Shown piece by piece: positions 4,396 to 4,418 of a stretch of 64,000 nt of DNA (positions are counted from its first letter, which is position 1; each line of letters starts with the position of its first letter). This stretch comes from Escherichia coli 042 (GTDB lineage: Bacteria; Pseudomonadota; Gammaproteobacteria; Enterobacterales; Enterobacteriaceae). The stretch is taken from the NCBI RefSeq assembly GCF_000027125.1, contig NC_017626.1, one strand, 5' to 3'. The position numbers were made by a program, and so were the translations under genes. The notes under the pieces were generated by a model. That model searched no databases and was not told the origin of the DNA. It worked only from the letters and a program-made list of their open reading frames with translations.

Positions 4396-4418
4396 GAAGT
4401 GTGATATTATAACATTTC
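4396..4418. promoter_or_regulatory. Zur box in the divergent znuA / znuCB promoter region
   Basis: Palindrome gaagTGTGATATTATAACAtttc (TGTGATATTATAACA is its own reverse complement), lying between the divergent start codons. Confidence 0.8.

Follow-up and report, generated by a model that had tools for sequence, protein, structure and literature searches.

The window, i.e. the whole 64,000-nucleotide stretch of Escherichia coli 042 DNA that was analysed, contains the genes of the ZnuABC zinc importer in divergent orientation, with mepM on the same strand as znuA. The genes were placed from their open reading frames and from annotation:

3434-4366, minus strand: znuA, periplasmic zinc-binding protein of the importer, 310 aa, a regulated gene (open reading frame; RefSeq and K-12 annotation)
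4445-5982, plus strand: znuC (ATPase, 4445-5200) and znuB (permease, 5197-5982), the regulated operon (open reading frames; annotation)
2096-3418, minus strand: mepM (yebA), zinc-dependent peptidoglycan endopeptidase (open reading frame; annotation)

The znuC and znuB reading frames overlap by 4 bp. Between the start codon of znuA (4366, minus strand) and that of znuC (4445, plus strand) is a 78-bp gap, and the palindrome described below is placed within it. The layout is the one found in K-12 MG1655 (mepM-znuA / znuC-znuB-ruvB). A 1.9-kb query across the site was matched in 5425 of 5426 complete E. coli genomes, at least 6 of them at 100% identity among the matches listed, and the annotation under the 100%-identical matches names znuA, znuC, znuB, and mepM. 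The regulator gene zur lies outside the window; of 5426 complete E. coli genomes, 5425 carry it, a count that applies to the species and not specifically to the source genome. No Rfam family reached its threshold in positions 1-12000. In one E. coli assembly the znu locus is on a record typed as a plasmid, and one zur copy among the E. coli genomes is likewise on a plasmid-typed record; such records could stem from mis-typing of the replicon or from a chromid-like element of very large size.

The 131 bp around the site differ from K-12 MG1655 at a single position, 4379 (C here, A in K-12), which lies 17 bp outside the box and is the only difference within the gap. A preliminary description of this DNA had called positions 4396-4418 a palindromic Zur operator between znuA and znuCB and had pointed to K-12 for comparison, and the near-identity of the two strains bears it out. 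C4379 is also the Enterobacteriaceae consensus base, and K-12 probably carries a minority allele at this position, the allele of the window looking like the common one. Among complete E. coli genomes, the 78-bp gap was found in 5422 of 5426 and is at least 99% identical to the window in 4182 of the 5422 matching records. Fewer records (only 660) reach 99% identity over the 1.9-kb query, most E. coli being 95-99% identical to the window over that length, and this coding divergence indicates that the strain background differs.

Read directly from the window, the 23 bases at 4396-4418 are GAAGTGTGATATTATAACATTTC, i.e. gaagTGTGATATTATAACAtttc, exactly as the preliminary description gave them. The arms GAAGTGTGATA and TATAACATTTC are arranged around T4407 and pair at 9 of 11 positions, the unpaired positions being G4399 against T4415 and G4403 against A4411. 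The next-best palindrome centre in the intergenic region pairs at 7 of 11. An inverted-repeat finder run on 4340-4470 returned only a 9-nt overlapping palindrome (ATATTATAA / TTATAACAT); it missed the 11-1-11 arrangement because the 2 mismatches break the arms, which were therefore rescored directly.

The earlier wording of a near-perfect inverted repeat is accurate, and the palindrome by itself is not statistically notable in 64 kb. The window holds 16 centres with at least 9 of 11 pairs, against about 8 expected by chance, and a bare palindrome of this quality is thus not exceptional over such a length, although within the 78-bp gap alone only about 0.01 would be expected. Evidence beyond chance comes from the match to the Zur motif and from conservation across genera. 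The other 11-1-11 palindromes with at least 9 of 11 pairs are centred at 991, 11480, 25349, 33721, 45260, 46504, and 46705, and at 46866, 49381, 52003, 52159, 52220, 57172, and 61771, while one centred at 2068 is the mepM terminator. Among these other palindromes of the window, one pairs at 10 of 11 positions and one at 11 of 11.

Gamma-proteobacterial Zur boxes follow a 23-bp pseudo-palindromic consensus, GAAATGTTATA-N-TATAACATTTC, i.e. GAAATGTTATANTATAACATTTC (PMC4219657; PMC2706843). The site of the window corresponds to it as follows:

4396-4418, no strand assigned: 23-bp Zur box in the classical register GAAATGTTATANTATAACATTTC, centre T4407 (consensus, matrix, arms pairing at 9 of 11 positions)

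We find that this stretch departs from the gamma-proteobacterial box at 2 positions, G4399 and G4403, and that it is the sole match to the consensus in the window at up to 3 mismatches. The same search gave no match in 100 dinucleotide-preserving shuffles. A structure-based pattern for 2 Zur dimers, TGWNAYRWTATAWYRTNWCA, which includes a central TATA (Gilston et al. 2014; PMC4219657), matches 4400-4419 with 0 mismatches and nowhere else in the window at up to 2 mismatches, this test not being independent as the pattern was partly derived from the znu site itself.

An independent, leave-one-out matrix was built from the validated zinT, L31p/ykgM, and pliG operators only (23 columns, symmetrised), the training sites being drawn from the Table S2 gel-shift probes of Gilston et al. 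2014 (PMC4219657). Positions 4396-4418 score 24.97 bits on this matrix, compared with 28.8-31.7 for the training sites, and are the top match of the window, the next best reaching 11.8 bits. The score of the site is not attained in any of 200 random 64-kb sequences (first-order Markov), which peak at 23.3 and have matrix maxima averaging 9.4 (sd 3.1). The preliminary description had proposed such a scan, with a poor score as the outcome that would count against a Zur site, and the value of 25.0 bits upholds it. The runner-up matches, 7915-7937 (TAAATATTTTAATATTACATATT) and 19905-19927 (GATTTATTACAATATAATCATTA), both at about 11.8 bits, are within the range of the random maxima and are probably chance AT-rich matches.

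The DNA of the window can also be compared base by base with published experimental material. The oligonucleotide 31mer2bpOH-f of Gilston et al. 2014 consists of AGAAGTGTGATATTATAACATTTCATGACTA and a 2-nt overhang (Table S2; PMC4219657), and it was chosen by its authors to hold the 31 nucleotides protected in footprinting assays. Footprints of PznuABC were obtained in Outten & O'Halloran 2001 and in Patzer & Hantke 2000, both cited in PMC4219657, and the crystal structure of Zur on PznuABC is PDB 4MTD (Gilston et al. 2014; PMC4219657). The genomic part of this oligonucleotide occurs exactly in the window, and the elements mapped on it are these:

4395-4425, no strand assigned: PznuABC DNA crystallised with Zur, 31 bp (exact match to the genomic part of 31mer2bpOH-f)
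4401-4413, no strand assigned: Zur dimer 1 element GTGAT-ATT-ATAAC (contacts G7, A11', A15, and G19'; centre 4407, the palindrome centre)
4406-4418, no strand assigned: Zur dimer 2 element ATTAT-AAC-ATTTC (contacts A12, A16', A20, and G24'; centre 4412, on the opposite DNA face)

Likewise, the genomic portion of the gel-shift probe Cy5-znuABC, 47 bases long, is exactly 4388-4434 (PMC4219657, Table S2). Eight purines are hydrogen-bonded in the Zur-DNA crystal, and with position 1 of the oligonucleotide taken as 4395, the mapped base contacts span 4401-4418. The expected base is present at every one of them: G7 (4401), A11' (4405), A12 (4406), A15 (4409), A16' (4410), G19' (4413), A20 (4414), and G24' (4418). 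The central A15 and A16' (4409 and 4410) contribute most to Zur affinity.

The contacts were grouped into dimers by the RNNNYxxxRNNNY rule of the paper, the grouping being our own mapping, and overlapping elements of this form, offset by 5 bp, are found at 4401-4413 and 4406-4418, where the bases contacted in the crystal are in place. The 31 protected base pairs reach further to the right of the palindrome than to the left because dimer 2 sits at 4406-4418. As such, the coordinates given earlier hold for the palindrome (4396-4418), while the functional site is slightly larger, extends further right (4395-4425), and is off-centre. As a discriminator, the purine-pyrimidine skeleton RNNNYRNNRYNNYRNNNY was tried and rejected, as it has 243 matches in the window, approximately the random expectation. 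A third such skeleton, GAAGT-GTG-ATATT, is found at 4396-4408 (centre 4402), 5 bp to the left of dimer 1, where it mirrors dimer 2; we do not suggest that it is occupied, given that the published footprint stops short on the left and that the skeleton is non-specific.

Experiments on DNA identical to 4388-4434 have demonstrated zinc-dependent binding of Zur and Zur-dependent repression (PMC4219657). Two Zur dimers bind PznuABC cooperatively, with an apparent Kd of 8.2e-18 M^2, and the promoter is repressed 6.6-fold in vivo (PMC4219657). Every sequence-level defining feature of a Zur box that we tested is present at the site, and the identification as a Zur operator made in the preliminary description is supported by the unique consensus match, the matrix score, and identity to DNA crystallised with Zur.

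To describe conservation, ZnuA was searched in one genome per species, which yielded 80 Enterobacteriaceae loci with 75-99% protein identity, including Escherichia, Citrobacter, Salmonella, Enterobacter, Klebsiella, Kluyvera, Lelliottia, Cedecea, Buttiauxella, and others. A divergent znuC is found 77-79 bp away in all 80 loci. The conservation alignment is made of the 75 distinct sequences from these loci and defines the following element:

4400-4415, no strand assigned: core conserved across genera, TGTGATATTATAACAT, a 7-1-7 palindrome plus T4415 (alignment of 75 sequences)

Positions 4400-4415 are invariant in the 75 distinct sequences, the single exception being an A in one sequence at T4407, the consensus N. 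Beside the core, intergenic positions have a mean major-base frequency of 0.79-0.85. Mean column entropies across the region are:

4400-4414, 15-bp core: 0.007 bits
4367-4395, gap left of the box: 0.61 bits
4419-4444, gap right of the box: 0.72 bits
4337-4366, first 30 coding bases of znuA: 0.16 bits
4445-4474, first 30 coding bases of znuC: 0.49 bits

The core at 4400-4415 is thus more conserved than the adjoining coding sequence. G4403, which is asymmetric, is invariant in 75 of 75 enterobacterial sequences, which puts it level with the symmetric positions. C4418, a base contacted in the crystal, varies (C in 7 sequences, T in 18, G in 30, and A in 20; n = 75), and the outer right flank (4416-4418) is TTC only in Escherichia-like sequences and TCN in most others. 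Among the records retrieved, CACSKA010000003.1 ("Chryseobacterium sp. 18061") is a 555-kb contig whose znuA is of the enterobacterial type (83% amino-acid identity to E. coli). Another znuA locus from the same project is titled Citrobacter, and CACSKA010000003.1 is probably mislabelled or contaminated.

A standard scan of 4300-4520 for paired -35 and -10 hexamers and for terminators gave no match. Extended -10 elements were found by a custom scan, one on each strand:

4402-4410, plus strand: predicted extended -10 of the znuCB promoter, TGaTATTAT (hexamer 5/6 to TATAAT, preceded by TGn)
4406-4414, minus strand: predicted extended -10 of the znuA promoter, TGtTATAAT (hexamer 6/6 to TATAAT, preceded by TGn)

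The best -35 of the predicted znuCB promoter matches at only 3/6 positions, and the custom scan found no usable -35 for the predicted znuA promoter; neither promoter exceeds 3/6, which explains why the two-hexamer scan was empty. From these elements, znuCB transcription is predicted to start near 4417 and znuA transcription near 4399. The two -10 hexamers overlap by 5 bp and are wholly inside the stretch that matches the published footprint, in line with the earlier statement that the site overlaps the divergent promoters. In the orthologous region of Yersinia pestis, primer extension and footprinting put the Zur site over a -10 element (PMC2706843). Promoter overlap in E. coli is therefore suggested by the extended -10 matches together with the Y. 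pestis orthologue.

Given these elements, the core might be merely the overlapping -10 elements of divergent promoters, with its palindromic look a by-product of TATAAT-like sequence on both strands. Indeed, TGaTATTAT on the plus strand and TGtTATAAT on the minus strand are both within the invariant core, promoter function alone could give the conservation, and conservation of the core alone cannot separate the constraint of an operator from that of a -10 element. We nevertheless consider this reading very unlikely. Zur binds the identical DNA in crystallography, gel shift, and footprinting, and mutations at the contacted bases have effects. In addition, T4400-G4401 and C4413-T4415, which are outside both hexamers but inside the Zur box, are conserved as well, and the site reaches 25 bits on a matrix made from operators of unrelated promoters. 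The promoter role and the Zur-site role are compatible and not exclusive.

It is more improbable still that a different Fur-family or metal regulator binds here instead of Zur, for instance Fur at an iron box or ZntR. Fur-family boxes are all AT-rich palindromes, and the Fur box resembles the znu site in being an AT-rich pseudo-palindrome that is bound by dimer(s) of a Fur-family protein and overlaps a promoter. The consensus of the Fur box is the 19-bp GATAATGATAATCATTATC. Against this consensus, the best alignment near the znu site has 8 mismatches in 19 positions, and 377 positions of the window are equal or better, so the znu site was rejected as a Fur box. The central TATA, read by Tyr45, is moreover reported as Zur-specific and absent from the Fur box. 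As for ZntR, partial ZntR-like dyads overlap Zur boxes, including that of znuCB, and apo-ZntR speeds the unbinding of Zur (2024 study; PMC11618457); this effect is described on Zur-bound DNA, and so it would be a layer added to Zur control rather than a replacement for it.

That the palindrome arose by chance in AT-rich intergenic DNA and has no function has practically no probability left, for although palindromes of its quality do recur in the window (16 centres where about 8 are expected), its match to the Zur motif is unique there and has no equal in shuffled or random sequence, the 16 bp of the core stay constant from genus to genus in Enterobacteriaceae (T4407 changes once) between variable flanks, and Zur has been found experimentally to bind the identical DNA. 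All three of these readings are negligible as rivals, and those that invoke promoter elements or another regulator describe compatible extra layers, not alternatives.

We regard it as close to certain that the site serves as the operator through which Zur controls the divergent znuA and znuCB promoters of E. coli. Specifically, when zinc is sufficient, two zinc-loaded Zur dimers would bind cooperatively on opposite faces of the DNA, dimer 1 at 4401-4413 and dimer 2 at 4406-4418, each Zur monomer reading an R-N-N-N-Y element via Arg65 and Tyr45. With the predicted -10 elements of both promoters held in the operator core, bound Zur would keep RNA polymerase off both, with joint repression of znuCB and of znuA, the latter probably together with mepM. 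When zinc falls, Zur would lose its regulatory zinc and leave the site, and the high-affinity importer would be expressed. The predicted occlusion is consistent with the general Zur model and with the Y. pestis orthologue. In this scheme, Zur binding, the stoichiometry of 2 dimers, the base contacts, and the approximately 6.6-fold repression in vivo have been established in the literature on identical DNA. The present analysis establishes the identity to that DNA, the specificity of the motif match, and its deep conservation, while the exact -10 elements, the start sites, and the co-transcription of mepM are deduced from sequence.

More than a mere member of the Zur-box family, the znu site of the window is its archetype, the PznuABC operator, as carried by a further E. 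coli strain, and as such it is already known. The footprint-derived 31 bp and the 47-bp probe of K-12 PznuABC, which is the same locus, are both exact here. With the operators of zinT, ykgM (L31p)/ykgO, and pliG, the site has in common the core TGTnAYrwTATAACA, recognition of RNNNY elements by 2 dimers, and cooperative binding. It differs from zinT and L31p in strength, its affinity being approximately 150-330 times weaker and its repression in vivo 6.6-fold compared with 560- to 984-fold (PMC4219657). Unlike other E. coli Zur operators, the znu site serves 2 divergent promoters at once, and its left arm has G4403 where symmetry predicts T. The divergent znuA/znuCB promoter of Y. pestis is orthologous, and its footprinted box, AGCGTAATATTATAACATT, contains the same perfect right arm, TATAACATT, whereas its left arm has CGTA where the window has TGTG; a second footprint, without a box, was also seen in Y. 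pestis (PMC2706843).

What is mildly new here is the quantitative footprint of the 16-bp core across genera, the fixed asymmetric G4403, and the non-conserved contact C4418. G4403 breaks the palindrome yet supplies the TG of the predicted znuCB extended -10; for znuA, a perfect TGtTATAAT arises from the symmetric arm. It is conceivable, though we hold it to be doubtful, that the imperfections of the operator are themselves selected. The core would then be an element with triple duty, i.e. a Zur site and 2 overlapping, mutually exclusive -10 elements, and its sub-optimal affinity for Zur would set the point at which znu is released during the graded derepression of Zur genes. The non-conserved outer contact C4418 could, for its part, further adjust how the second dimer binds from lineage to lineage.

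The site is part of a textbook metalloregulatory switch. The switch determines how strongly ZnuABC is expressed, a high-affinity zinc importer that matters for growth when hosts restrict zinc. Confirmation of the site provides only a correct annotation of the window and a marker for the znu locus.

A by-product of the analysis is sequence support for transcription of mepM from the same Zur-controlled promoter. Co-transcription of mepM/yebA with znuA has been suggested, and mepM is reported to be induced on zinc starvation (PMC6381278). In the window, mepM starts 15 bp after the znuA stop codon, and no terminator-like site was found between the 2 genes. A strong terminator-like hairpin followed by a T-run (AGCCGGTAC...GTACCGGCT TTTTT) is located at 2080-2056, just after mepM. 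The missing terminator between znuA and mepM and the hairpin after mepM fit the published suggestion, and mepM is probably co-transcribed with znuA under the same operator.
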